Shown piece after piece: positions 9,327-24,000 of a stretch of 24,000 nucleotides of DNA. Both the position numbers and the translations under genes were made by a program. The notes beneath the pieces were generated by a model. That model had not been told where the DNA came from. It made no database searches and worked only from the letters and a program-made list of their open reading frames with translations. Source of the stretch: Nevskiales bacterium (lineage in GTDB: Bacteria > Pseudomonadota > Gammaproteobacteria > Nevskiales > Nevskiaceae); NCBI GenBank assembly GCA_028698335.1, contig JAQVDP010000021.1:37622-61621 (forward strand), read 5' to 3'. Position 1 is the stretch's first letter. Each line of letters starts with the position of its first letter.

Positions 9327-12257
9327 ATGCAGACCCAGACCCGCGGTGCCACCACCGAATCCCAGCGCCCGCCTCAGGCGCCGGCCCACACGGCCGAACT
9401 GGCCGCGACGGCCCCCGGCGCCGTCCGCGTGATCCGCCGCAACGGCAAAGTCACCGCGTTCGACGCGTCGAAGATCCAGATCGCGGTCACCAAGGCCTTC
9501 CTCGCCGTCGAGGGCTCGGCCGCCGCGGCCTCGGCGTCGATGCGGCAGAAGGTCGACGGCCTCACCGATCAGGTCGTCCAGGCTCTCAACCGGCACATGT
9601 CCGGTGGCGGCACCCTGCACATCGAGGACATCCAGGATCAGGTCGAACTGGCACTGATGCGCAACGGCGAACACAAGGTCGCCCGCGCCTATGTGCTGTA
9701 TCGCGAGGAGCAGAACCGCAAGCGCGCCGCCGAAGCCGCGACCCAGAAGGCCGAGGCTCAGAAGCCGGCGCTGTCGATCACCCGTGACGACGGTTCCACG
9801 GTCGCGCTGGACGAAGCGCGCATGCATCGTCTGGTCGGCGAGGCCTGCACCGGACTGGAAGGCGTCAACGCCGACGAGATCGTCACCGCGGCACTGCGCG
9901 ACCTCTACGACGGCATGCCGGAAGCCGAACTGTCGCAGGCGCTGACCCTGGCCGCCCGCGCCCGCATCGAGAAGGAGCCGAACTACACCTACGTGTCGGC
10001 GCGCCTGCTGCTCGACGCGATGCGCCACGAGGCACTGAAGTTCCTGGGCATGCCCGAATCGCGTCCGACCCAGGAAGAGATGAAGGGCCTGTACCCGGCC
10101 TACTTCCGCGAATACATCAACAAGGCGGTCGAGCTCGAACTGCTCGACCCGAAGCTGGCACTGTACGACCTCGACATGCTCGGCAACGCGCTGCTGCCGG
10201 AACGCGACCAGCAGTTCGATTACCTCGGCCTGCAGACGCTGTACGACCGCTATTTCATCCACGCCAACAAGACGCGCTTCGAGCTGCCGCAGGCATTCTT
10301 CATGCGCGTGGCGATGGGCCTGGCGATCAACGAGATCGAACGCGAGACCAAGGCCATCGAGTTCTACACGCTGCTGTCGAGCTTCGACTTCATGTCGAGC
10401 ACGCCGACGCTGTTCAACTCGGGCACGCTGCGCCCGCAGCTGTCGAGCTGCTACCTGACCCAGGTCCCGGACGATCTGCACGGCATCTTCGGCGCGATCC
10501 ACGACAACGCGATGCTGTCGAAATTCGCCGGCGGCCTCGGCAACGACTGGACGCCGGTGCGCGGCATGGGCGGCTGGATCAAGGGCACCAACGGCAAGTC
10601 CAACGGCGTCGTGCCGTTCCTGAAGGTCGCCAACGACACCGCTGTCGCGGTCAACCAGGGCGGCAAGCGCAAGGGCGCGGTCTGCGCCTACCTCGAGACC
10701 TGGCACCGCGACATCGAGGAGTTCCTCGAACTGCGCAAGAACACCGGTGACGACCGCCGCCGCACGCACGACATGAACACCGCCAACTGGGTGCCGGACC
10801 TGTTCATGAAGCGCGTCATGGAAGAGGGCCAGTGGACCCTGTTCTCGCCGGAGGAAACGCCCGACCTGCACGATCTGATCGGCGACGCCTTCGAGAAGCG
10901 CTATGCCGAATACGAGCGTCTCGCCGACGAGGGCCGCATCAGCAACTTCAAGCGCATCCCGGCAGTACAGCTGTGGCGCAAGATGCTGTCGATGCTGTTC
11001 GAGACCGGCCATCCGTGGATCACCTTCAAGGATCCGTGCAACCTGCGCTCGCCGCAGCAGCACGTCGGCGTCGTCCACAGCTCGAACCTGTGCACCGAGA
11101 TCACCCTGAACACCAAGGCCAACCAGGAAATCGCGGTCTGCAACCTCGGCTCGGTCAATCTGCCGGCACACATCACCGACGACGGCCAGCTCGATCTGGC
11201 CAAGCTCGAGAAGACCATCAGCACCGCGATGCGGATGCTCGACAACGTCATCGAGTACAACTACTACTCGGTACCGACGGCGCGCAATTCCAACATGCGG
11301 CATCGTCCGGTCGGGCTCGGCATGATGGGATTCCAGGACGCGCTCTACAAACTGCGTCTGCCGTACGAGTCGGACGAGGCGATCCGCTTCGCCGACGAGA
11401 CGATGGAGGCGATCAGCTACTACGCGATCAAGGGCTCCAGCGACCTGGCCGGAGAGCGCGGCAAGTACTCCAGCTTCGACGGCTCGCTGTGGTCGCAGGG
11501 CATCCTGCCGATCGACTCGATCCGTCTGGTCGCCGAGGCACGCGGCCCGCAGTACCTGCAGCAGGACACCGGCATGTCCGGCCGCTTCGACTGGGACACC
11601 CTGCGCGAGCAGGTCAAGACCGTCGGCATGCGCAACTCCAACTGCATGGCGATCGCGCCGACCGCCACCATCGCCAACATCACCGGCGTGTCGCAGTCGA
11701 TCGAGCCGACGTACCAGAACCTGTACGTGAAGTCGAACCTTTCGGGTGAGTTCACCGTCGTCAACGAATACCTCGTCAACGACCTGAAGAAGCTCGACCT
11801 GTGGGACGAGGTCATGGCGCACGATCTGAAGTACTTCGACGGCAGCGTGCAGCAGATCGACCGCGTTCCCGACGCGCTCAAGGCGATCTACAAGTGCGCG
11901 TTCGAGGTCGACCCGAAGCGCCTGGTCGATGCCGGCAGCCGCCGCCAGAAGTGGATCGATCAGGCGCAGTCGCTGAACCTGTACATGGCCCAGCCCAGCG
12001 GCAAGAAGCTCGACGAGCTGTACAAGCATGCCTGGAGCACCGGCCTGAAAACGACCTACTACCTCCGCACCATGGGCGCGACCCACGCGGAGAAGGCGAC
12101 GATCAACGACAACCGCCTGAACAAGGTCGGCCAGTCCAGCGCCAGCGGCGTGTCGGCGGCACCCGCAGCCGCTCCGCAGCCGGCCGCGGCGGCCTCCGAC
12201 GTCGGCGGCGCCAAGGTGTGCTCCATTCTCGACCCCGACTGCGAGGCCTGCCAGTAA
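9327..12257 (+). CDS. nrdA: Ribonucleoside-diphosphate reductase class Ia, alpha subunit, with tandem N-terminal ATP-cones
   Basis: 976 aa. ATP-cone 1: VIRRNGKVTAFDASKIQIAVTKAF. Second cone-like segment: ITRDDGSTVALDEARMHRLV. Catalytic blocks: VNQGGKRKGAVCAYLETWHRDIEEFLELRKNTGDDRRRTHDMNTANW, SNLCTEITL, CNLGSVNL. C-terminal CxxC shuttle: DPDCEACQ*. ATG 9327 follows a G-rich RBS (GGGGGGAA, 9310-9317). The ORF-track start at 9180 is an unsupported extension. Confidence 0.97.
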   Translation: MQTQTRGATTESQRPPQAPAHTAELAATAPGAVRVIRRNGKVTAFDASKIQIAVTKAFLAVEGSAAAASASMRQKVDGLTDQVVQALNRHMSGGGTLHIEDIQDQVELALMRNGEHKVARAYVLYREEQNRKRAAEAATQKAEAQKPALSITRDDGSTVALDEARMHRLVGEACTGLEGVNADEIVTAALRDLYDGMPEAELSQALTLAARARIEKEPNYTYVSARLLLDAMRHEALKFLGMPESRPTQEEMKGLYPAYFREYINKAVELELLDPKLALYDLDMLGNALLPERDQQFDYLGLQTLYDRYFIHANKTRFELPQAFFMRVAMGLAINEIERETKAIEFYTLLSSFDFMSSTPTLFNSGTLRPQLSSCYLTQVPDDLHGIFGAIHDNAMLSKFAGGLGNDWTPVRGMGGWIKGTNGKSNGVVPFLKVANDTAVAVNQGGKRKGAVCAYLETWHRDIEEFLELRKNTGDDRRRTHDMNTANWVPDLFMKRVMEEGQWTLFSPEETPDLHDLIGDAFEKRYAEYERLADEGRISNFKRIPAVQLWRKMLSMLFETGHPWITFKDPCNLRSPQQHVGVVHSSNLCTEITLNTKANQEIAVCNLGSVNLPAHITDDGQLDLAKLEKTISTAMRMLDNVIEYNYYSVPTARNSNMRHRPVGLGMMGFQDALYKLRLPYESDEAIRFADETMEAISYYAIKGSSDLAGERGKYSSFDGSLWSQGILPIDSIRLVAEARGPQYLQQDTGMSGRFDWDTLREQVKTVGMRNSNCMAIAPTATIANITGVSQSIEPTYQNLYVKSNLSGEFTVVNEYLVNDLKKLDLWDEVMAHDLKYFDGSVQQIDRVPDALKAIYKCAFEVDPKRLVDAGSRRQKWIDQAQSLNLYMAQPSGKKLDELYKHAWSTGLKTTYYLRTMGATHAEKATINDNRLNKVGQSSASGVSAAPAAAPQPAAAASDVGGAKVCSILDPDCEACQ

Positions 12258-12363
12258 GGGCCGGGCAGCGATCATCCCGGCCGTCACCGGCCGGGAGCCT
12301 GCTTCGGCGGCACCATCGACCCACCGGCCTTGCCCCAGGCCGAGGGGCCGAGCCGACGATCCG

Positions 12364-12396
12364 ACGGACATCCGACTTCCCGGGTGTCCGTTTTTT
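12364..12396 (+). terminator. Rho-independent terminator downstream of nrdA
   Basis: ACGGACA (12364-12370) pairs with TGTCCGT (12385-12391) around a 14-nt loop. The T at 12391 closes the stem and begins the run TTTTTT (12391-12396). Confidence 0.7.
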
Positions 12397-12559
12397 GTCG
12401 CCGCCGCCCACTCCGGCTCGCCGCAGCACCGTTAGGTCAATTTTTTCCGACCGCTTGGGGGTTCTCGCCCTTGTGCCGCCGCGTGGCAAACGGCTTACTG
12501 GTTCGATCGCCGGATACCGACAGCCCGTATCCGGATCACGATCCCAGATGAGGAAAGCC

Positions 12560-15500
12560 ATGATGTCACGCACCTTCGTGGCGCTGCTGTCGGCAGCGCT
12601 GACTTCGGCAACGGCCGCCGCCGCGGTCTCACCCCCCGCCGGAGCCGCCGCACAGTCCCACGCCGCCGCGCGGCCGAACTACGACGCGTTCTACGCCAAG
12701 AGCCGCGCGACGACGGCGACCACCGGCGCCACGAGCCTGCGCGCCAAGCAGGTCGCCCGCCAGCGCTCGGCGGCCGGTTATGCGTCGCAGTTCGACCCCC
12801 TGCGTCAGCAGGCCACGTTCCTGTGGGCGACCGACACCGCGCCGGTCAGCGTCGGCCCGGTCAAGGCCGCCGCGCTGCCCGAAGCGCTGGGCCGCCGGTA
12901 TCTGGGCAAGTACGCGGGCACGCTCGGACTCGATCGCAGCGCGATCAGCTCGGCCAGGCTCATCGGCGCGCAGAAGATGCGCGGCGGCAGCACGATCTCG
13001 CGCTTCCAGCAGCGCGTCGGCGACATCGAGGTGTTCGGACGTCAGCTCAACGTTCTGACCGGCGCCGACCAGCGCCTGGTTGCGATCTCCGGCAGCTTCG
13101 ATCGTGGCATCGTCAGCAAGTCCGGCTTCGCGCGCGCGCCGGAGCAGGCGATCACCGCCGCCGTCGGCGACCTCGGCGGCAGCATCGTGCCGGTCGCGAT
13201 GAGCACCGAAAAGTCCGCTGGCGGATACCTGAGCTACTCCAACTACGCGACGAATCCGGACTACCTCCTGGAGCGCCCGGTCCGCGTCAAGCAGGTCTAC
13301 TTCCCGCTGCCCGGCACCCTGGAACCGGCGTACTACATCGAAGTGATCGGCCGTGCCGCCGGCTCGAAGCGGCAGGATGGATACAGCTACGTCGTCTCGG
13401 CGAGCACCGGCGAGATCCTGTTCCGCAACAACCTGATCGCCCACGAGGGCGGCAGCACCGCATACACCTACCGCGTCTTCGCCGATCCCAGCGGCATCAA
13501 GCAGCCCTACGACTCGCCGCTGGGCAACAGCAGCGTGCCGTTCGCAGGCGCCACCCCGCAGGACGTGCCGGCACGCCAGTCGGCCACCGCCAATCGCGTC
13601 ACCCTGGTCAGCGGCCCGATCAGCACCGGCGACGCCTGGCTGCCCGACGGCGCGACGACGACCACCGGCAACCACGCCGACGCCTACCTCGATACCGGCC
13701 TGCAGCTCGATCCCGGCATCTACCTGAACAACCAGCCGTTCGACTGGCCCGGCGACGGCTACGTGCCGCTGACCGGGGACCTGCGCAGCGCCTCCACCGA
13801 CACCGCGACCTTCGACTATCCGATCGCCGCCGACGACGATCCTGCGGCCAGCGACGCCAAGCAGGCCGCCATCGTCAACCTGTTCTATATGAACAACTGG
13901 CTGCACGACTGGTGGTACGACCACGGATTCGACGAAGCCGCCGGCAACGCGCAGACCGACAACTACGGCCGCGGCGGCATCGACGGCGATCCGATCCAGG
14001 CCCAGGGCCAGGACGCCGGCGGCCGCAACAACGCCAACATGCTGACCCCTGGCGACGGCAGCTCGCCGCGCATGCAGATGTATCTGTTCGATGGCTCGAT
14101 CTCGGGCGAGGTCTGCCAGCAGTCGCCGAACGACAACTGCCCGTCCACGGCGGCGGGCGACGGCTACCGCTTTTCCGGTGCCAGCTTCGGCCCGTCGGAG
14201 TTCGACGTCACCGGCGAGCTGGTGCTGATCGACGACGGCTCCGAGCCGGTCACCAACGGCTGCAACGACAACCTGCTGATCCCGGATCCGATCGGGCTGG
14301 GCCTGGTCCCCGACACACCGCTGCCGGACCCGACCCTGGCCGGCAGCATCGTGCTGATCGACCGCGGCAGCTGCTCATTCACCACCAAGGAACAGTACGC
14401 GATGCTGTCCGGCGCCGCGGCGATGATCGTCATCAACAACGGCGAAGGCGAACCCATCTCCATGGGCAACGCCGACATCCCGATCGACGTCGGCTTCACC
14501 ACCGACGGCCTCTACATCACGCCGGCAGTGATGATCAGCAAGGCCAGCGGCGACGCCCTCAAGGCGCAGCTCGCGGCCGGCGACAGCATCACCATGCGTG
14601 TGCTGCGCGAGCCGTCGATCGACTACGACGGCACCCTCGACAATCTGGTGATCGCGCACGAGTACTTCCACTACGTCAGTAACCGTCTGATCTCGGACGG
14701 CAACGGCCTGAGCAACAACCAGGGCGGCAGCCTCGGCGAAGGCTGGGGCGACATCTCCGCGTGGATGCTCTCGGTGCGCGAGGATGACGTCAACGTGCCC
14801 GGCAACGGAGCCTGGCAGGGCGCCTACCCGTCCGGCTACTACGTGCTCGACAGCTTCTACTACGGCATCCGCCGCATGCCGTACTCGGCGGACTTCGGCA
14901 AGAACCTGCTGACCTTCAAGCACATCGAGGACGGTGTGCCGCTGGAGGGCGACGCACCGGTCGGCTTCGGCACCGATGGCGCGACCAATTCGGAAGTGCA
15001 CAACGCCGGCGAGGTGTGGGCCAACACGATGTTCCACGCCTACACCATGCTGCTGACCGATCCGCGCCACAGCTTCTCCGAAGCGCAGAGCCGGATGAAG
15101 GACTACATCATCTGCGGCATGAAGATGACGCCGAGTTCGCCGACCTACACCGAGGCGCGCGACGGCGTGCTGGCCTGCGCAAAGGCCAATGACGTGGTCG
15201 ACTTCAGCCGTATGGCGAAGGCCTTCGCGCTGCGCGGCATGGGCGTCGAGGCCGTCTCCCCGGCGCGCGACAGCACCGATCACGCCGGCGTGGTCGAGAG
15301 CTATGTGGCGGTCATCGCCCAGGCACCGAGCCTGATCGCCGGCAGCGACGACGGTACCGGCGACTGCGACGCCGACGGCATCCTCGACGCGGGCGAATAC
15401 CGGACGCTGCGCTTCGAACTGCTCAACAACGGGGCCTATGCCGCCGGCGACACGGTGCGCTACACCCTGAGCAGCGACAGCGCCGCGCTGGGTTTCGTCG

Positions 15501-16447
15501 ACGGCAACACGCTCAGCTTCACCGCCGGCGCGATCGGCGAGACCAGCACCGCGGACATCCTCGTCGAGCTGTCCGAGACGGCACCGTCGCCGCTGACGGT
15601 CACGCTGACGCTGACCGCCTCGCCGCTGGCGACACCGGATCCGGTCGTGCAGTACCCGGACAGCGTCACCCTGACCCTGCTGGCCAACTACGACGCCGCG
15701 CAGACCGCCACCTCGGACGACTTCGAGATCCCGGCCCTGTCGGTCGGCGACTGGACGGTCAACAGCACCGGGACGACGACGGTCTGGAGCATCACCGACG
15801 AGAACGACATCACCGGCAGCGGTCTGGCCTGGTTCGCCCCGGATCTGGATACCCAGACCGAGATCCAGCTGGTCTCGCCGGCATTCGTGGTGCCGGCCGA
15901 TACCGGCTTCACGCTGGGCTTCGACCACTACTACGAGTTCGAGGAGGTCGGACCGCTGCTGCCGACCGGCTATGACGGCGGCTACATCGACGTCAGCGTC
16001 GACGGCGGCGAATGGGTCGATGCCGAAACCTTCGGCGTCAGCTTCGCCAACGGCTACGACGGCACCATTCAGGCCAACGGCCGCAGCGGTTACACCGGTT
16101 CCAGTGGCGGTGTCGTCACCGAGACGCTGGACTTCGGCACCCTGGTCGCCGGCCACAGTGTGCGGGTCCGCTTCAGCGTCGCGTCCGACGAGCTGACCGG
16201 CGCGTTCGGCTGGATCGTCGACAACCTCACCACCACCGGCGCCGAACCGGCGTTCACCGCGGTCAGCGAGGAACTCGGCGTCTGCGACGTGACCCCGCCC
16301 GACAGCGGCGGCGGCAGCGGCGGCGGCAACACCGGCGGTGGCGGCACGGGCGGATCGAGCTCCGGCGGCGGCGCCATCGGCGGCGGCATGATCGCCCTGT
16401 TCGCGCTGCTCGCCGCGGCACGGCGGCGCCGTCGAACCCTGCACTGA
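12560..16447 (+). CDS. Secreted M36 (fungalysin-type) zinc metalloprotease with FTP propeptide, inserted PA domain, C-terminal MAM/lectin-like domain and Gly-rich/TM/Arg sorting tail
   Basis: 1295 aa from ATG 12560 (GAGGAAA RBS at 12550-12556). Signal peptide: MMSRTFVALLSAALTSATAAAA. FTP-like block: ISRFQQRVGDIEVFGRQLNV. PA domain: GSIVLIDRGSCSFTTKEQYAMLSGAAAMIVINNGEG. Zinc site: HEYFHYVSNRL (HEYFH at 14657-14671) plus GEGWGD (Glu 14738-14740), which is the M36 pattern. Tail: GGGAIGGGMIALFALLAAARRRRRTLH*. Confidence 0.85.
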   Translation: MMSRTFVALLSAALTSATAAAAVSPPAGAAAQSHAAARPNYDAFYAKSRATTATTGATSLRAKQVARQRSAAGYASQFDPLRQQATFLWATDTAPVSVGPVKAAALPEALGRRYLGKYAGTLGLDRSAISSARLIGAQKMRGGSTISRFQQRVGDIEVFGRQLNVLTGADQRLVAISGSFDRGIVSKSGFARAPEQAITAAVGDLGGSIVPVAMSTEKSAGGYLSYSNYATNPDYLLERPVRVKQVYFPLPGTLEPAYYIEVIGRAAGSKRQDGYSYVVSASTGEILFRNNLIAHEGGSTAYTYRVFADPSGIKQPYDSPLGNSSVPFAGATPQDVPARQSATANRVTLVSGPISTGDAWLPDGATTTTGNHADAYLDTGLQLDPGIYLNNQPFDWPGDGYVPLTGDLRSASTDTATFDYPIAADDDPAASDAKQAAIVNLFYMNNWLHDWWYDHGFDEAAGNAQTDNYGRGGIDGDPIQAQGQDAGGRNNANMLTPGDGSSPRMQMYLFDGSISGEVCQQSPNDNCPSTAAGDGYRFSGASFGPSEFDVTGELVLIDDGSEPVTNGCNDNLLIPDPIGLGLVPDTPLPDPTLAGSIVLIDRGSCSFTTKEQYAMLSGAAAMIVINNGEGEPISMGNADIPIDVGFTTDGLYITPAVMISKASGDALKAQLAAGDSITMRVLREPSIDYDGTLDNLVIAHEYFHYVSNRLISDGNGLSNNQGGSLGEGWGDISAWMLSVREDDVNVPGNGAWQGAYPSGYYVLDSFYYGIRRMPYSADFGKNLLTFKHIEDGVPLEGDAPVGFGTDGATNSEVHNAGEVWANTMFHAYTMLLTDPRHSFSEAQSRMKDYIICGMKMTPSSPTYTEARDGVLACAKANDVVDFSRMAKAFALRGMGVEAVSPARDSTDHAGVVESYVAVIAQAPSLIAGSDDGTGDCDADGILDAGEYRTLRFELLNNGAYAAGDTVRYTLSSDSAALGFVDGNTLSFTAGAIGETSTADILVELSETAPSPLTVTLTLTASPLATPDPVVQYPDSVTLTLLANYDAAQTATSDDFEIPALSVGDWTVNSTGTTTVWSITDENDITGSGLAWFAPDLDTQTEIQLVSPAFVVPADTGFTLGFDHYYEFEEVGPLLPTGYDGGYIDVSVDGGEWVDAETFGVSFANGYDGTIQANGRSGYTGSSGGVVTETLDFGTLVAGHSVRVRFSVASDELTGAFGWIVDNLTTTGAEPAFTAVSEELGVCDVTPPDSGGGSGGGNTGGGGTGGSSSGGGAIGGGMIALFALLAAARRRRRTLH

Positions 16448-17548: not shown

Positions 17549-18379
17549 ATGCGTACGGACGTCATCGGATGGTCGATTCTGCTCGCCGCCGCTGCGGCTT
17601 TCGGCGCCTTCATCGTCGGCCAGCTGCACTGGGGCGAAGCCCTGCGCCCGGCCGCATATGCCTATCCGGCCACCGGGCCGGAATGCCCGGCAACGACCGC
17701 AGCTGCGCCACCGCCTGACGACAGCGGTCTGCCCGGCTACACCGTCCGCACCCCGAGCAACTACGATCCGCGCCGCGCGCACCCGTTGCTGATGGTATTC
17801 AGCCCTGCCGGCAGCAACCGCGCACTGACCGAACGCTTCACCGGCCTGACCCACGATGCCACCGCGCAGGGCCTGATCGTCGCCTACGTCGACAGCCTGC
17901 GCCTGAGCCGGGACGCGGTGGCCCGCTTCGCCCGGGTGGTCTCGGCGATCGAGCGGCAATGGTGCATCGATCCGCGACGCATCAGCTTCACCGGGCATTC
18001 GGATGGCGGCAGCGTCTCCGAGCTGATCGCCCTGCTCGACACCGGCATCGACGTCGCCCCCGCCGCCGTCGTCGCCAGCGCCGGCGGCCTGATCGATACC
18101 GACTTCGCCGAATTCGAATGCCGCCGCCCGATCGACGTCACGCTGTATCACGGCCGCGATGACCGCCATTTCCCCGGCTACGGCGCATCCGCCGCGCGCG
18201 GCTGGGCGCAATGCCTGGGCTGCGACGCCAGCCCGGACACCGACACCGAGGGCTGCGCGGTCTACCGGAACTGCCGGGGCGCGCTGAAGTACTGCGAGCA
18301 GCCCGGCGGACACTGGCGCTGGCCCGACATCAACAGCGCAATCGTGGCCAAGGCCGCAGCGGCCGTCGCGACCGACTGA
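17549..18379 (+). CDS. Alpha/beta-hydrolase esterase, PHB-depolymerase/LpqC-like family, N-terminal signal-anchor
   Basis: 276 aa. Hydrophobic N-terminus: WSILLAAAAAFGAFIV. Nucleophile elbow: FTGHSDGG (GxSxG). Cys-rich C-terminal block ending CEQPGGHWRWP, as in esterases of the PHB-depolymerase family. It starts 35 nt after the MerR gene. Confidence 0.55.
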   Translation: MRTDVIGWSILLAAAAAFGAFIVGQLHWGEALRPAAYAYPATGPECPATTAAAPPPDDSGLPGYTVRTPSNYDPRRAHPLLMVFSPAGSNRALTERFTGLTHDATAQGLIVAYVDSLRLSRDAVARFARVVSAIERQWCIDPRRISFTGHSDGGSVSELIALLDTGIDVAPAAVVASAGGLIDTDFAEFECRRPIDVTLYHGRDDRHFPGYGASAARGWAQCLGCDASPDTDTEGCAVYRNCRGALKYCEQPGGHWRWPDINSAIVAKAAAAVATD

Positions 18380-18412: not shown

Positions 18413-19594
18413 TCAGGCCGCCTCGTAGATGCTGACCACGCATGCGCCGCCGATGCCGAGATTGTGGCCGAGGCCGATGCGCGCCGCCGGCACCTGGCGC
18501 GCCTGCGCCTCGCCCCGCAGCTGTTCGACCAGCTCGGCGCACTGCGCCAGCCCGGTCGCCCCCGGCGGATGCCCCATCGACATCATGCCGCCGGACGGAT
18601 TGACCACCCAGCGCCCGCCGTAGGTGTTGTCGCCGTCGACGACCATGCGTTCGCCCTCGCCCGGCGCCGCCAGGCCGAGGGCCTCGTAGGTGATCAGTTC
18701 GTTGCTGGCGAAGCCGTCGTGCAGCTCGACGACGTCGACATCCTCGGGGCCGAGGCCCGCCATCGCGTAGGCGGCGTCGGCGGCGCCCTGGCTCATGTCG
18801 TAGCCGACCGTGTAGATGATGTCCGCGGCATCGAGCGTCGCCGGCCGATCCGACACCATCGCCTGCGCGCGGATGCGGACGCAGCGGCGCAGCCCGCGCC
18901 GGCGCCGGAATGCCTCCGAGCAGACCAGCACCGCCGCCGCGCCGCTGGCCGGCGGGCACGCCATCAGGCGGGTCAGCGGCGCCGACAGCGCCGGCGACGC
19001 CATCACCTCGTCGGCCGACAGCTCCCGCCGCAGCAGCGCGTAAGGATTGTGGCGTGCATGACGGCTGGCCTTGGCGCGCACCTGCGCGAAGCTGCTCGCC
19101 GCCGTTCCGTACCGGGCCATGTGCGCCGCGCCCGCCGCCGCAAAGTAGCGGATCGCCTGCGGCGCTTCGCTGTGTCCGATCAGGGCCTCGGCCGCCAGCT
19201 CGATCGGCTCGGTCGGCGCCGGGCGACTGACGTCGCGCGGAAACGGCAGTTCGGGGCGCAGCTGGTCGAAGCCGAGTGCCAACGCACAGTCGGCCGCGCC
19301 GCTGGCCACCGCCTGCCGCGCCAGAACCAGCGCGCTGGCGCCGGTGGCGCAGCTGTTGTTGACGTTGAAGATCGGAATCCCCGCCATTCCCAGCCCGTAG
19401 AGGGTGCGCTGGCCGCAGGTCGAGTCCCCGTAGACATAGCCGACGAAGGCCTGATCGACATCCATGAAGTCGAGCCCGGCGTCGGCCAGCGCGGCGACAG
19501 CGGCGCGCGCGCCCAGATCGTGATAGGGCGGACTGCCGCCCGGCTTCACGAACGGCACCCGGCCGACGCCGGCGATATGGATGGAGTCATTCAC
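18413..19594 (-). CDS. Thiolase-superfamily protein, SCP2/lipid-transfer-type (acetyl-CoA acetyltransferase-like)
   Basis: 393 aa from GTG (19592-19594, GAGAG about 9 nt upstream). Motifs: IHIAGVGRVPF, VNNSCATGASAL (nucleophilic Cys), GHPPGATG, GLGHNLGIGGACVV. There is no second C-terminal catalytic Cys, as in SCP2-type thiolases. Confidence 0.85.
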   Translation of the reverse strand: MNDSIHIAGVGRVPFVKPGGSPPYHDLGARAAVAALADAGLDFMDVDQAFVGYVYGDSTCGQRTLYGLGMAGIPIFNVNNSCATGASALVLARQAVASGAADCALALGFDQLRPELPFPRDVSRPAPTEPIELAAEALIGHSEAPQAIRYFAAAGAAHMARYGTAASSFAQVRAKASRHARHNPYALLRRELSADEVMASPALSAPLTRLMACPPASGAAAVLVCSEAFRRRRGLRRCVRIRAQAMVSDRPATLDAADIIYTVGYDMSQGAADAAYAMAGLGPEDVDVVELHDGFASNELITYEALGLAAPGEGERMVVDGDNTYGGRWVVNPSGGMMSMGHPPGATGLAQCAELVEQLRGEAQARQVPAARIGLGHNLGIGGACVVSIYEAA

Positions 19595-19837
19595 GGATCG
19601 GTTCTCTCGGTGGAGGGGCGGACAGCCCGGGCGCCGCACGAAGGCCTGATTGCTGCACCGCAATATGGCGCAGCTCTGGCCCGAATCATCAATTGTACGT
19701 AGTGCAACTACTCACTCTAGACAAGCCCAAAATCCTGTGCAAGACTTCGCCGCAATGGATCCGGAAAACCGGACCAGAGTGCCGGCAGCCGCGTTTCGGC
19801 CGGCTCACGAGACGTGCAAAAAAGTCAGGAGAGCTTC

Positions 19838-20656
19838 GTGACCACTACAGTCGAAACCCCCCGTGCCACCCCGGACAAGCCCATCCGTGCGCCTTGGAAG
19901 GCGTTCTTCGGAATGCTGGCGTTCTCAGCGGTGGTCTTCACCGTTTACCGCATCTACCAGCACGAGACCGCGTTCACCTTCGGCCTCGATTACTTCAACC
20001 CCGAGTTCGCCACCTACTGGATGAGCGTCCTGTACGCGGAACTCGCCATCGAAGTGCTGCTCGGCGCCGCGATCGTCGGCTATCTGTGGACGACACGCGA
20101 CCGCCACCTCGACAAGATCACGCCCGCCGAGGAACTGCGCCGTTACCTCGTGCTGATGAGCCAACTGCTGCTGTTCGGCGCGATCGCCTACGTGGTGACG
20201 TCGATCTACACCGAATCCGACGCCGCCTGGCATCAGGTCACGGTGCGTGACACCGACTTCACGCCGACCCACATCGGGCTGTTCTACTTCGGCGTTCCGG
20301 TCTTCATCCTCAGCGTGCTGACCGCATTCGTCTATGCCCGCACCCGCATCCCCGCCTTCGCCAGCAAGGTGTCGCTGCCGTTCGCACTGCTCGTCGCCGG
20401 CCCGGTGATGATCATGCCGAACCTCGGCTTCAACGAGTGGGGCCACACCTTCTTCTACGCTGAAGAACTGTTCGCGGCACCGATCCACTGGGGCTTCGTG
20501 CTGCTGGGCTGGGCCACCTTCGCCGCCGGCGGGCTGCTGGTGCAGATCCTGAGCCGCATCGTGCAGCTGACCCAGGTCATCGGCTCGGCCAGCGCGCAGC
20601 AGACCGACATCCAGGTCGAAGCCGCCGCCAAGGCGGAGCTGAACGCGGCTGCCTGA
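19838..20656 (+). CDS. amoC/pmoC: Copper membrane monooxygenase subunit C (PmoC/AmoC family)
   Basis: Full-length similarity by eye to M. capsulatus PmoC: ESDAAWHQVTVRDTDFTPTH and NEWGHTFFYAEELFAAPIHWGFVLLGW. CuC ligands Asp/His/His are at 20219, 20231 and 20270. CuD ligands Asn/His/His are at 20432, 20444 and 20486. The preferred start is GTG 19838, 5 nt after AGGAGAG (19827-19833). The ORF also opens at GTG 19814. Confidence 0.95.
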   Translation: MTTTVETPRATPDKPIRAPWKAFFGMLAFSAVVFTVYRIYQHETAFTFGLDYFNPEFATYWMSVLYAELAIEVLLGAAIVGYLWTTRDRHLDKITPAEELRRYLVLMSQLLLFGAIAYVVTSIYTESDAAWHQVTVRDTDFTPTHIGLFYFGVPVFILSVLTAFVYARTRIPAFASKVSLPFALLVAGPVMIMPNLGFNEWGHTFFYAEELFAAPIHWGFVLLGWATFAAGGLLVQILSRIVQLTQVIGSASAQQTDIQVEAAAKAELNAAA

Positions 20657-20733: not shown

Positions 20734-21486
20734 ATGTCTCAAGAACTAGCCGCCTCGGCCGTGCACAGCACCGCCGAGCAGCATCGGGTGCACGTCCAGG
20801 TCGACCTGCTGGCGATTCCGCTGGTCGTCCTGCTCTTTGCTGCCGTCTTCAGCTTCCAGTTCGCCCTGCTGGTCGGCGACTGGGACTACTGGATCGACTG
20901 GCGTGACCGCCGTTGGTGGCCGCTGGTGACCCCGCTGGCCCTGACCATCCTGCCGGCCGTGTTCGGCTACTTCCTGTGGGAACGCCTGCGCCTCCCGCTC
21001 GGCGCGACACTCACCATCATCGCGCTGACCGCGGCCGCGTGGATCAGCCGCTACCTGAACTTCCACCTGTTCGCGAACTTTCCGATGAACATGGTGTGGC
21101 CGTCGGCGTACATCGGCCTGGGCCTGATCGTCGACTGCATCCTGCTGCTGACCGGCAGCTTCTTCTGGACCGGGCTGTTCGGCGGCTTCGCCTTCGGCGT
21201 GCTGCTCTACCCGATGAACTGGCCGCTGCTGGCGCCGTTCCAGGTCCCGGTGGAGATGCACGGCACGATGCTGACGGTGTCCGACCTGATGGGCTTCGAG
21301 TACATCCGGACGGCCATCCCGGAGTACGTCCGCATCATCGAGCAGTCGACCCTGCGCACCTTCGGCGAGGCCGTCACCCCGCTGACCGCGGTCTTCGCCG
21401 GCTTCCTGAACATCATGAACTTCTGGTTCTGGACCTGGATCGGTTACCTCGGCAGCAAGGCGCTGTGGCTGCGCAAGATCGTCTAA
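20734..21486 (+). CDS. amoA/pmoA: Copper membrane monooxygenase subunit A (PmoA/AmoA family)
   Basis: 250 aa. Blocks shared with PmoA: GDWDYWIDWRDRRWW, LWERLRLPLGAT, NWPLLAPFQVPVE, IRTAIPEYVRIIEQSTLRTFG. A strong RBS precedes the start. Confidence 0.95.
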   Translation: MSQELAASAVHSTAEQHRVHVQVDLLAIPLVVLLFAAVFSFQFALLVGDWDYWIDWRDRRWWPLVTPLALTILPAVFGYFLWERLRLPLGATLTIIALTAAAWISRYLNFHLFANFPMNMVWPSAYIGLGLIVDCILLLTGSFFWTGLFGGFAFGVLLYPMNWPLLAPFQVPVEMHGTMLTVSDLMGFEYIRTAIPEYVRIIEQSTLRTFGEAVTPLTAVFAGFLNIMNFWFWTWIGYLGSKALWLRKIV

Positions 21487-21500
21487 GGAGAGCGAGAACA

Positions 21501-22736
21501 ATGAAACGACTGATCTCCCTGACCTGCTCGGCGCTGGTCGCGATGCTGAGCCTGGTCGCCGCGATGGAGCCGGCCCAGGCCCACGGCGAACGCGCGCAGA
21601 TGCCACAGCTGCGCATGCGTTCGGTGCACTGGTTCGACATCAACGTCTCGACCGTGAACATGCAGATCAACGATCTGATCAAGGTCACCGGCAGTTTCAT
21701 GCCGTCGAACTACTGGCCCGAGCACGTCCAGTCCATCGAGAAGACCGCGTTCCTCAACATCGGCGTTCCGGGCCCGTCTTTCGTGCGCCTCGACTCGCGG
21801 GTCAACGGCGTGCCGATGATCCGGTCGACCGCGTTCAAGAAGGGTGAGCTGTACAACTTCGAGATCACCCTGAAGGCGCGCAAGACCGGCCGCTACCACG
21901 TCCACCCCGTCATCAACGTCGAAGGCACCGGCCCGATCATCGGACCGGGTCTGTGGGTCGAGGTCGGCGGCGACGAGGCCGCCTTCGAGAACAGCGCCAC
22001 CACGCTGCTCGGCAAGACCATCAACCTCGAGTCCTACGGCCTCGCCAACGCGGCGTTCTGGTCCGGCCTGTGGTTCGTGATCGGCCTGGCGTGGTTCGCC
22101 TACTGGCTGCTCAAGTGCCCGATCGTCGTGCCGCGCTTCAAGCGCGTCAACGAACTCGGGCCGGCCGAGGCCGACAAGATCATCACCCCCAACGATCGCC
22201 GCGCCGGTCTGGTGTTCCTGGTTCTGGCCCTGTCGGTCGTCGCCGGCTCCTACATGTACACGCAGGAGAAATGGCCGATCACCACGCCGCTGCAGACCGG
22301 CAAGATCGAGGTGCCGCCGATCGACGTCGACCTGCCCCTGCAGGTGCGTCTGCAGGACGCGCGCTATCGCATCCCGGGCCGCAGCTTCCGCATGGAACTG
22401 GAAGTCACCAACAGCGGCGACAGCCCGGTCATGGTCGGCGAGTTCGCCGCCGGCAACCTGCGCTTCATCAACAGCGACGTGCTGAAAGTGACGCCGAAGG
22501 ACGAGGACGACCTGGTGGCCACCGACGCGCTGCGCGTCGAGGGCGGTCCGATCGCACCGGGCGAGACCCGCACCATCGTCGTCTATGCCGACGACGCCCT
22601 GTGGGAAACGCAGCGCATGACGACGATGATCGCGTCGCCCGACGCGCTGGTGGCGGGCATGCTGTTCTTCTTCGACGCCAACGGCGAACGCTTCCCGGTC
22701 GAAGTCGGCGGCATGATGATTCCGGAGTTCGTCTGA
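21501..22736 (+). CDS. amoB/pmoB: Copper membrane monooxygenase subunit B (PmoB/AmoB family)
   Basis: 411 aa from ATG 21501 (GGAGAG at 21487-21492). The signal peptide ends AQA|HGE, so the mature N-terminus is His28 (21582-21584). YHVHPVINVEGTGPIIGPG supplies the other two CuB-site His residues (21897, 21903). There are two central TMs and a C-terminal cupredoxin block: APGETRTIVV...LFFFDANG. The ORF-track entry 20913-22736 is an out-of-context 5' extension. Confidence 0.95.
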   Translation: MKRLISLTCSALVAMLSLVAAMEPAQAHGERAQMPQLRMRSVHWFDINVSTVNMQINDLIKVTGSFMPSNYWPEHVQSIEKTAFLNIGVPGPSFVRLDSRVNGVPMIRSTAFKKGELYNFEITLKARKTGRYHVHPVINVEGTGPIIGPGLWVEVGGDEAAFENSATTLLGKTINLESYGLANAAFWSGLWFVIGLAWFAYWLLKCPIVVPRFKRVNELGPAEADKIITPNDRRAGLVFLVLALSVVAGSYMYTQEKWPITTPLQTGKIEVPPIDVDLPLQVRLQDARYRIPGRSFRMELEVTNSGDSPVMVGEFAAGNLRFINSDVLKVTPKDEDDLVATDALRVEGGPIAPGETRTIVVYADDALWETQRMTTMIASPDALVAGMLFFFDANGERFPVEVGGMMIPEFV

Positions 22737-23344
22737 TGTGGCGCAAGCTCGCGGCGGCCACGGCCCTGATCCTGGGCCTGGCCGCCGGCCCCGCCTTTTC
22801 CCATGGCGGGGTCTCGGTCGAGGACGACGTCTGCATCATGCGCATCGGACCGTATCGCGCGCATTTCACCGGCTACCAGCCCGAATACCGTGCGACGCAG
22901 GAGTTCTGCGAGGACATCCCGGTGGTCGCACCGGCGATCATCGTGCTGGACTTCATCGACAACGCGCTGCGTGGCATGGACGTCGAGTTCAACCTGCTGC
23001 GGGATCGCGAGGGCCTCGGCGCCAACGCCCGCTACGAGGATCTCGGGTCGATGGAGCAGATCCGGCAGCACAGTCTGTTCAACGTGCCCGCCGCCAGTTA
23101 TCCCCGCGGCACGATCACGCTCGAACCGAAGCTGGAGGAGTCCGGCTGGTACATCGGCGTGCTCAGCGCCACCGACCCGAAGACCGGCGGCACCCTGCAC
23201 TCGGTGTTCCCGTTCCGCGTCGGCTTTCACAACTACTGGAAATACGCGATCGCGTTCGCCCTGATCGTCGCACTGTCGGTGACCGTCTACCGGGTCACCG
23301 GGCGCAAGCACAGGGCGGGCGCGACGCCCCCATCCCCCGCCTGA
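22736..23344 (+). CDS. Small secreted protein with C-terminal TM anchor, translationally coupled to subunit B (fourth gene of the CuMMO operon; family not recognised)
   Basis: ATG 22736 overlaps the xmoB stop (TGATG). 202 aa. Signal peptide MWRKLAAATALILGLAAGPAFS|HGG leaves His23 at the mature N-terminus. The periplasmic domain is about 150 aa with Cys33, Met35, His43 and Cys58. C-terminal TM: YAIAFALIVALSVTVY, then a basic tail. GC3-rich codon usage matches its neighbours. Confidence 0.7.
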   Translation: MWRKLAAATALILGLAAGPAFSHGGVSVEDDVCIMRIGPYRAHFTGYQPEYRATQEFCEDIPVVAPAIIVLDFIDNALRGMDVEFNLLRDREGLGANARYEDLGSMEQIRQHSLFNVPAASYPRGTITLEPKLEESGWYIGVLSATDPKTGGTLHSVFPFRVGFHNYWKYAIAFALIVALSVTVYRVTGRKHRAGATPPSPA

Positions 23345-23613: not shown

Positions 23614-24000
23614 ATGCAGCGCGGAAAATGGTTCATCACGTTCCTGACCATCGCGGTCATCGCCGGCGCCGCGGGACTCGGCTGGCGCCAGCTCAACCCG
23701 CCGACCACGTCGGGTGGTTCGATTGTCGACGCCGAACCGGAGGTACCGTGCCCGCCGCTGGCCAACGCCGAATGGCGTGCCGCGCAGACCATCGACGGCG
23801 TCGAGATCGAGGCCGATCCGTCCTGCGAGCCGGACAACCCGGCCGTCGTCGCGGCGGTGGTCAAGGGTACCAATCGGGCGGTCAAGGCGCTGATGGACAC
23901 GCGTCTGGCCCGGGATACCGTGATCAAGCGCAGGGATCTCGACGGCGACGGCGATCCGGACGAGATCGAGATCAAGCTCGAGGTCACCGAACTCAACGGC
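23614..24000 (+). CDS. N-terminally membrane-anchored periplasmic protein, 3' end truncated by window (possible cupredoxin/multicopper-oxidase-like start; unproven)
   Basis: ATG 23614 lies 6 nt after GAGGA (23603-23607). It translates as MQRGKWFITFLTIAVIAGAAGLGW (signal-anchor), then 2 Cys, then the acidic loop DLDGDGDPDEIEIKLEVTELNG. Third-position GC is high throughout. It is absent from the ORF track only because it has no stop within the window. Confidence 0.6.
   Translation, partial: MQRGKWFITFLTIAVIAGAAGLGWRQLNPPTTSGGSIVDAEPEVPCPPLANAEWRAAQTIDGVEIEADPSCEPDNPAVVAAVVKGTNRAVKALMDTRLARDTVIKRRDLDGDGDPDEIEIKLEVTELNG

Follow-up and report, generated by a model that had tools for sequence, protein, structure and literature searches.

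The genes for a copper membrane monooxygenase (CuMMO) in a Nevskiales bacterium are followed directly by a fourth gene, and the locus raises the question of what this gene encodes and what its product may do for the enzyme. The window analyzed here is the whole stretch of 24,000 nucleotides (nt) from that genome (GenBank assembly GCA_028698335.1, contig JAQVDP010000021.1, positions 37,622 to 61,621 of the forward strand), in which the subunit genes xmoC, xmoA, and xmoB are followed, on the same strand, by a gene named xmoD in this analysis. A first-pass annotation of the sequence had proposed that xmoD encodes a candidate new copper-handling subunit. The sequence and the modeled fold of XmoD place it instead in the PmoD/AmoD family, the least understood conserved partner of the CuMMOs (of methane, ammonia, and short hydrocarbons). 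It is not a new kind of subunit, as orthologues were catalogued already in 2018. As a whole, the evidence is best explained by a PmoD/AmoD-family XmoD that is an exported, membrane-anchored, copper-binding accessory factor of XmoCAB, a reading whose probability is estimated at roughly 80%.

Protein Layout and Family Assignment

The gene and the parts of its product are as follows (positions in the window).

22736..23344, + strand: xmoD, 202 aa, PmoD/AmoD family, class Cx9HxnC
22736..22801, + strand: predicted signal peptide, residues 1-22 (MWRK, LAAATALILGLAAG, PAFS)
22802..22804, + strand: codon of His23 ("H1"), predicted to come first in the mature protein, ahead of Gly-Gly-Val; all four residues are invariant (80/80 sequences)
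22802..23236, + strand: periplasmic cupredoxin-like PmoD domain, residues 23-167 (6CPD profile match, Foldseek, invariant residues)
22832-22834, 22862-22864, and 22907-22909, + strand: codons of the domain residues Cys33, His43, and Cys58
23237..23299, + strand: predicted C-terminal transmembrane helix, residues ~168-188, followed by the basic cytoplasmic tail RKHR (hydropathy, AlphaFold)

The three segments of the predicted signal peptide correspond to its n-, h-, and c-regions, and are followed by HGGVSVEDDVC. The cleavage motif, A-x-S/H (the slash marks the predicted cut), carries Ala at position -3 and Ser at position -1, in agreement with the signal peptidase I rule. Residue conservation was scored over the window protein and 79 genome homologues, down to 42% identity, using open reading frame (ORF) calls anchored on HGGV. 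The residue preceding His23 in all 79 homologues was Ala (50), Gly (26), Ser (2), or Thr (1), and position -3 was mostly A, V, L, G, or S. Since this pattern is kept in the homologues, cleavage before His23 is a conserved prediction, drawn from the -3/-1 rule together with its conservation, and the earlier proposal that cleavage at PAFS/HGG exposes His23 stands as such.

The exported part is a domain of about 145 residues with two cysteines only, at positions 33 and 58. The hydropathy maximum of XmoD was found at residues 167-189. An AlphaFold2 model of positions 22736-23341, built on an alignment of 29 homologues (A1), had a mean predicted local distance difference test score of 88 and a predicted template modeling (TM) score of 0.76, and showed helices at residues 2-16 and 168-188 with a beta-sandwich between them. 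Hydropathy and model therefore agree with the predicted layout of a signal peptide, a periplasmic domain, and a single C-terminal membrane helix, as it had been read in the first-pass annotation.

The A1 profile was searched against all chain sequences of the PDB and gave one significant match, PmoD of Methylocystis sp. Rockwell (6CPD, E = 7.8e-20), which spanned profile positions 31-163, essentially the entire crystallized domain. Pairwise BLASTP of XmoD against 6CPD gave 26% identity with E = 3e-16. The comparison with PmoD by structure prediction and Foldseek, which had been suggested earlier, pointed the same way: 6cpd_A (E = 1.5e-11) and 6cpd_B (4.7e-11) were the best matches of the XmoD model in the PDB, with target-normalized TM-scores of 0.83-0.86 and a root-mean-square deviation of 2.7 Å, and all others were far behind. 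Cys33, His43, and Cys58 of XmoD align with Cys41, His51, and Cys65 of PmoD, of which Cys41 and Cys65 are the "universally conserved" PmoD cysteines and His51 is a ligand (Fisher et al. 2018, PMC6189053). According to Fisher et al. 2018 (PMC6189053), the family is recognized by a signal peptide, two strictly conserved cysteines in a periplasmic domain, a membrane helix at the C-terminus, and its occurrence in genomes that encode a CuMMO. XmoD shows a signal peptide (by rule), a cupredoxin-like domain, the two cysteines, a C-terminal helix, and adjacency to CuMMO genes, and these sequence features and the modeled fold identify the xmoD product as a member of the PmoD/AmoD family.

Methylocystis PmoD (Met49242_1452, class Cx7MxHxnC) resembles XmoD in its signal peptide, cupredoxin-like domain, and C-terminal helix, in the two invariant cysteines, in a histidine 10 residues past the first cysteine, and in the position of its gene directly after that for CuMMO subunit B. 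Apart from the low identity given above, XmoD differs in having an Arg in place of the CuA ligand Met49, and a 10-residue N-terminal extension, HGGVSVEDDV, with an invariant histidine at the H1 position, where Met49242_1452 has Glu. Unlike that of Methylocystis PmoD, the host enzyme of XmoD appears to be a non-methane, non-ammonia CuMMO of Nevskiales-type Gammaproteobacteria.

A direct orthologue of XmoD was already on record. Ga0070002_104146 of Solimonas aquatica DSM 25927 (198 aa, contig positions 165511-166107) is entered in the supplement of Fisher et al. 2018 (PMC6189053) as a PmoD of class Cx9HxnC, group "other", with the entry "PmoD in CuMMO operon = 1". This gene corresponds to locus L002 of the present survey (66% identity; contig range 159577-172092). 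Sequences of the Hydrogenophaga/Polaromonas type, starting ...AWAHGGVGIEDDKC, are also in that dataset (PMC6189053). The first-pass notion of a new subunit is thus superseded by an already described family.

Conservation and Linkage to CuMMO Operons

A search of a 5.8-billion-protein set clustered at 90% returned 462 XmoD homologues (E <= 1e-3); among the matches listed, each was about 200 aa long and all were labeled "hypothetical protein". Their hosts include the Nevskiales genera Sinimarinibacterium (74% identity), Panacagrimonas, Nevskia, and Solimonas, and the Burkholderiales genera Polaromonas, Hydrogenophaga, and Rhodoferax. A one-genome-per-species scan gave 140 xmoD loci, which reach marine gammaproteobacterial and alphaproteobacterial metagenome-assembled genomes; the locus counts below refer to the best 80 of these 140. 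In the 80 sequences scored for conservation, the invariant residues of the N-terminal part were H23, G24, G25, V26, D31, C33, H43, F44, G46, Y47, P49, R52, F57, C58, and E59, and those of the remainder were D72, R79, G125, G137, G141, F158, P159, F160, and V162. XmoD is a real, conserved gene and not a chance ORF.

The monooxygenase genes of the window, and a candidate ribosome-binding motif at the junction with xmoD, are the following.

19814..20656, + strand: xmoC, CuMMO subunit C (Pfam AmoC 4.1e-79; NCBIfam AmoC_BACT 6.5e-86, under the equivalog cutoff)
20734..21486, + strand: xmoA, CuMMO subunit A, 250 aa (Pfam AMO 7.3e-79)
21501..22736, + strand: xmoB, CuMMO subunit B, 411 aa (Pfam Monooxygenase_B 4.7e-123; stop codon TGA at 22734-22736)
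22724..22727, + strand: GGAG, a Shine-Dalgarno-like motif located 8 nt ahead of the ATG of xmoD, inside the xmoB 3' end (read from the sequence)

The xmoC ORF, read from its GTG, encodes 280 aa; in public gene calls the start lies farther downstream and the product has 272 aa. For the Xmo subunits of the window, the scores against NCBIfam AmoA and AmoC and the TIGR equivalogs were all under the cutoffs, which fits a CuMMO outside both the canonical methane and the canonical ammonia monooxygenases.

Using the XmoC, XmoA, and XmoB proteins of the window as tblastn queries, xmoA and xmoB were found directly upstream of xmoD, on the same strand, in 80/80 loci, and xmoC was found upstream in 71/80. 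Four of the nine loci without an xmoC match (L029, L030, L036, and L075) begin within about 2.3 kb upstream, and their xmoC may have been lost to the contig end. Four others (L032, L047, L055, and L065) have the order xmoA-B-D and, over more than 3 kb upstream, no xmoC match. Two xmoC-like matches precede xmoA at L012 (1860-3657), L016 (1761-3613), and L043 (430-2634), which suggests tandem duplicated C-subunit genes. The first-pass annotation had named a lack of linkage to CuMMO operons as grounds for giving up its copper-handling proposal; with every surveyed locus linked, that proposal came through this comparison and is supported at the level of sequence.

In the window, the ATG of xmoD (22736-22738) has one base in common with the TGA of xmoB (TGATG, 22734-22738), as reported earlier. 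A 1-nt stop/start overlap was found in 23 loci and a 4-nt overlap in 9 (32/79 in total); in the remaining 47/79, xmoB and xmoD are predicted to overlap slightly or to be separated by as much as 193 nt. Because the clean overlap is confined to these 32 loci, coupling characterizes the closer clade and is not a requirement across the family. Of the earlier claim that the overlap enforces obligatory co-expression, the co-expression is supported and the obligation is not, and the sequence suggests that xmoD is probably translationally coupled to xmoB in this clade. A simple scan between xmoB and xmoD found no terminator-like hairpin, and a promoter and terminator scan around xmoD gave nothing informative.

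The strict adjacency of xmoD and xmoB in all 80 loci, and an overlap that suggests matched expression, would also be expected if XmoD were a stoichiometric fourth subunit of the enzyme, whose C-terminal helix sits on XmoC and corresponds to the helix left unassigned in structures of particulate methane monooxygenase (pMMO) and ammonia monooxygenase (AMO). PmoD/AmoD was once proposed for this helix, according to a review, but the same review notes that the unassigned pMMO/AMO helix has not been attributable to PmoD. The sequence of the membrane helix is, moreover, poorly conserved in alignment A1, and the loci with variable spacing argue against a fixed coupling of expression. A fourth stoichiometric subunit is considered unlikely, and XmoD probably belongs to neither the catalytic nor the core structural subunits.

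Metal-Binding Motif and the CuA Question

The first-pass annotation had found no recognizable PmoD/AmoD motif. The motif C1...H2...C2 is in fact present in XmoD as Cx9Hx14C (C33-IMRIGPYRA-H43 ... C58). Cys33, Met35, His43, and Cys58 are located where they had been reported, and Cys33, His43, and Cys58 are invariant; position 35 varies (M 44, L 19, I 17; n = 80), for which reason Met35 is rejected as a conserved candidate ligand.

In the purple, homodimeric CuA center of PmoD, Cys41, Met49, and His51 are required, within the motif Cx7MxHxnC (Fisher et al. 2018, PMC6189053). The M49A mutant loses CuA, and CuA was formed solely by Cx7MxHxnC proteins, whereas other classes, including a Cx9HxnC representative, bound copper without CuA spectra (PMC6189053). 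XmoD has the fold and the family of Methylocystis PmoD, and of the three CuA ligands, Cys41 and His51 have counterparts in its Cys33 and His43, so that a homodimeric CuA center, passing electrons to the monooxygenase, might be considered. The third ligand, however, is replaced: the position equivalent to Met49 is Arg41 in XmoD, and R, K, T, L, S, or Q, but never M, in the 80 homologous sequences. XmoD lacks the Met eight residues after C1 that defines the CuA subclass, and has no Met at C1+8 or C1+9, as is characteristic of class Cx9HxnC. A CuA center in XmoD is therefore quite unlikely. Because the Met required for CuA is always absent in the clade, a mononuclear copper site is predicted instead, and by analogy with the tested PmoD of class Cx9HxnC, the XmoD clade most likely binds mononuclear copper.

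The closest relatives by motif are the Cx9HxnC proteins, such as MettrDRAFT_0370 of Methylosinus trichosporium OB3b and Ga0070002_104146, which share with XmoD both C-x9-H...C and H1. The tested representative, which bound copper without CuA features, was a construct with an N-terminal Ser-Met, and the native histidine N-terminus was not reproduced (PMC6189053). According to Fisher et al. 2018 (PMC6189053), the Cx9HxnC genes of methanotrophs lie mostly near copC, outside the pmo operons, and Cx7MxH and Cx8MH are the main types of PmoD within operons. The XmoD clade, in contrast, is a Cx9HxnC clade strictly linked to CuMMO operons, in members of the Gamma-, Beta-, and Alphaproteobacteria for which oxidation of methane or ammonia is not known. 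The earlier description of in-operon PmoDs leaves out these CuMMOs, and their inclusion is a modest extension. AmoD and AmoE (orf5 and orf4) of ammonia-oxidizing bacteria (Cx8MHxnC and Cx7MxHxnC) belong to the same family and also follow amoB, and many of them have A/HGG; AmoD differs from XmoD in having Met, rather than Ala, beside the His, and its host enzyme is an ammonia monooxygenase.

The cysteines of the motif allow for a further reading, in which Cys33 and Cys58 form a redox-active disulfide and XmoD is a periplasmic thiol-disulfide or redox-sensing factor, not a copper protein. No residues but these two cysteines are conserved throughout the family, and in the crystal they are joined by an intramolecular disulfide (PMC6189053). 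On the other hand, all tested PmoD classes bind copper, the C41S mutation abolishes the copper center of PmoD (Fisher et al. 2018, PMC6189053), and the copper proteins encoded next to xmoD include a multicopper oxidase and one that is cupredoxin-like (see below). This reading is considered very unlikely, and copper binding remains the preferred assignment for XmoD.

Representation in Family Libraries

A Pfam scan of XmoD gave nothing at E <= 1 except for DUF4179, a spurious match to the membrane helix; an NCBIfam scan gave no match. The first-pass annotation had likened the layout to copper proteins of the CopC and YcnI type, and a search with the corresponding Pfam profiles and that of PCuAC (CopC, DUF1775, and PCuAC) gave no match to XmoD. 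The crystallized 6CPD domain and AmoD-type relatives (representatives P0192 and P0207) were likewise matched by no Pfam-A or NCBIfam model. The label "hypothetical protein" throughout the family is thus a consequence of the fact that current family libraries do not model the PmoD domain, and since the same libraries miss 6CPD, the empty scan of XmoD is silent on its novelty. That XmoD might represent a new, unrelated family that converged on a PmoD-like layout, as had been allowed for in view of the missing matches and of homologues all annotated as hypothetical, is refuted by its significant sequence and fold homology to 6CPD (by profile, BLASTP, and Foldseek), a crystallized PmoD domain that itself lacks any such match.

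In two family representatives of about 330 aa (P0154 and P0183), the PmoD domain is followed by a YtkA-like one (PF13115, E = 1e-12 to 3e-10).

The N-Terminal Histidine

When 1.84 billion representatives (50% identity) were searched in full with HMMER, 681 members of the family were obtained (E <= 1e-3), and residues were counted family-wide over the best 150 of these, in an alignment anchored on the hidden Markov model. The first cysteine, C1, was Cys in 145/145 representatives, C2 was Cys in 144/145, and H2 was His in 118/145. H1 was His in 128 of the 137 representatives that cover the column (93%). The N-terminal histidine, which had been taken as special to this gene, is therefore a family hallmark and not peculiar to xmoD, and in these alignments it is the best conserved potential ligand after the two cysteines. 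A/HGG is common to the Cx9H type, with Ala before H2, and to the AmoD-like Cx8MH type, with Met before H2. The "H1" column in the table of Fisher et al. 2018 denotes a His upstream of the first Cys and equals His23 (PMC6189053); the crystallized PmoD, Met49242_1452, has Glu at this position, in contrast to the His of many others (Fisher et al. 2018, PMC6189053).

H1 was retained in 23 representatives without H2, and the presence of H1 and that of H2 were not correlated (odds ratio 1.3, p = 0.67; 137 representatives), such that H1 is not obviously dependent on H2.

In all published PmoD constructs, the first native residue is preceded by Ser-Met from the vector. Two of the construct primers begin exactly at the H1 His (ATG-CAT-GGG... 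and ATG-CAT-GAC-GGC...). Because of the Ser-Met extension, a free amino-terminal His was absent from every published construct. A full-text search found no literature that ties PmoD to a histidine brace.

The predicted mature N-terminal histidine and the periplasmic beta-sandwich are features that XmoD has in common with the histidine-brace proteins, which include the CuB site of PmoB, CopC, YcnI, the PCuAC-domain protein PmoF, and lytic polysaccharide monooxygenases (LPMOs) of family AA10. XmoB of the window has the same arrangement, as had been pointed out in the first-pass annotation: its signal peptide reads ...EPAQA/HGERAQ, with a predicted end at AQA/HGE. Sequence homology between XmoD and the histidine-brace proteins was not found, and the Foldseek similarity was weak, so that the likeness is a resemblance and not membership. 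Next after PmoD in the Foldseek search came AA10 LPMOs (TM-scores of about 0.31-0.42) and CrdA of H. pylori (0.64, target-normalized), with E-values from 2.8e-4 upward; these are too weak as evidence and serve as a lead only.

It is conceivable, if rather doubtful, that the mature N-terminal histidine (A/HGGV) is a real copper ligand, bound via its free alpha-amine and its imidazole as in a histidine brace, together with the cysteines alone or with His43. If so, most PmoD/AmoD proteins would share the H1 site as their conserved core, and it would have been overlooked owing to the Ser-Met constructs and to a crystallized PmoD that naturally lacks H1. The operon-embedded Cx9H clade would then be a dedicated copper-insertion factor of alkane-type CuMMOs. 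The near-universal H1 histidine thus poses a specific, testable question, namely which copper site most PmoD proteins form.

Proposed Role of XmoD

The evidence above can be assembled into a sequence of steps for XmoD as a copper-binding accessory factor. The xmoD gene is strongly predicted to be transcribed together with xmoCAB. Its product is likewise strongly predicted to be exported by a Sec signal peptide, to begin with His23 once that peptide is cleaved at the predicted site, and to be tethered to the inner membrane by the C-terminal helix, with the cupredoxin-like beta-sandwich in the periplasm. A putative copper cluster near the N-terminus of the domain would comprise His23, Cys33, His43, and Cys58, and perhaps Asp31 and Glu59. 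As an accessory to the monooxygenase, XmoD may load or maintain its copper sites, or support their redox state. Studies of other PmoDs bear on this last step. A pmoD knockout in Methylosinus trichosporium OB3b led to a copper-dependent growth defect, and with PmoD of the Methylacidiphilum pmoCAB3 cluster a heterologous pMMO became able to oxidize acetone. Together, these results indicate a functional link between PmoD and the monooxygenase at the level of the family.

Several points weigh against this proposal. For the XmoD clade itself, we infer copper binding, the cleavage site, and the interaction with XmoCAB alike. The literature assigns no settled, precise role to any PmoD as yet. The disulfide between the two invariant cysteines of the 6CPD crystal (PMC6189053) may mean that they are structural residues and not ligands. 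The uncorrelated occurrence of H1 and H2 lends no support to an obligate joint H1-H2 site; it neither supports nor excludes a joint site as such.

Genomic Surroundings

One further gene of the locus begins behind xmoD, after a gap of 269 nt.

23614..24000, + strand: membrane-anchored multicopper oxidase, 525 aa, of which the start only lies in the window (full copies match Pfam Cu-oxidase_2/3)

The full multicopper oxidase region was found in contigs L083 (3983-6637) and L001 (6649-9292), and also in L084, and the membrane helix of the protein is N-terminal. On the longer contigs that carry the identical gene, the oxidase is followed by a 146-aa His-rich protein (MAHEHHHDH...) with a weak Big_7/DUF4399 match, and then by a 196-aa protein with a cupredoxin-like C-terminus (...YFVHCDVSQHTEKGL...). 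Behind xmoD, the multicopper oxidase was present in 36/80 loci and the 196-aa gene in 32/80.

Upstream of xmoC, the segment 16488-19663 contains a gene for a MerR-family regulator (Pfam MerR_1 2e-21; 280 aa by gene calls), a gene for a 276-aa protein without a Pfam match (17549-18379), and a divergent thiolase-like gene on the minus strand (18413-19663). The same arrangement of the three genes recurs in contigs L081 and L082. Farther upstream, at 11801-16447, an ORF of 1548 aa from its first GTG (about 1295 aa in public calls) encodes a protein with Peptidase_M36 (fungalysin) and PA domains, which appears to be unrelated to the monooxygenase operon.

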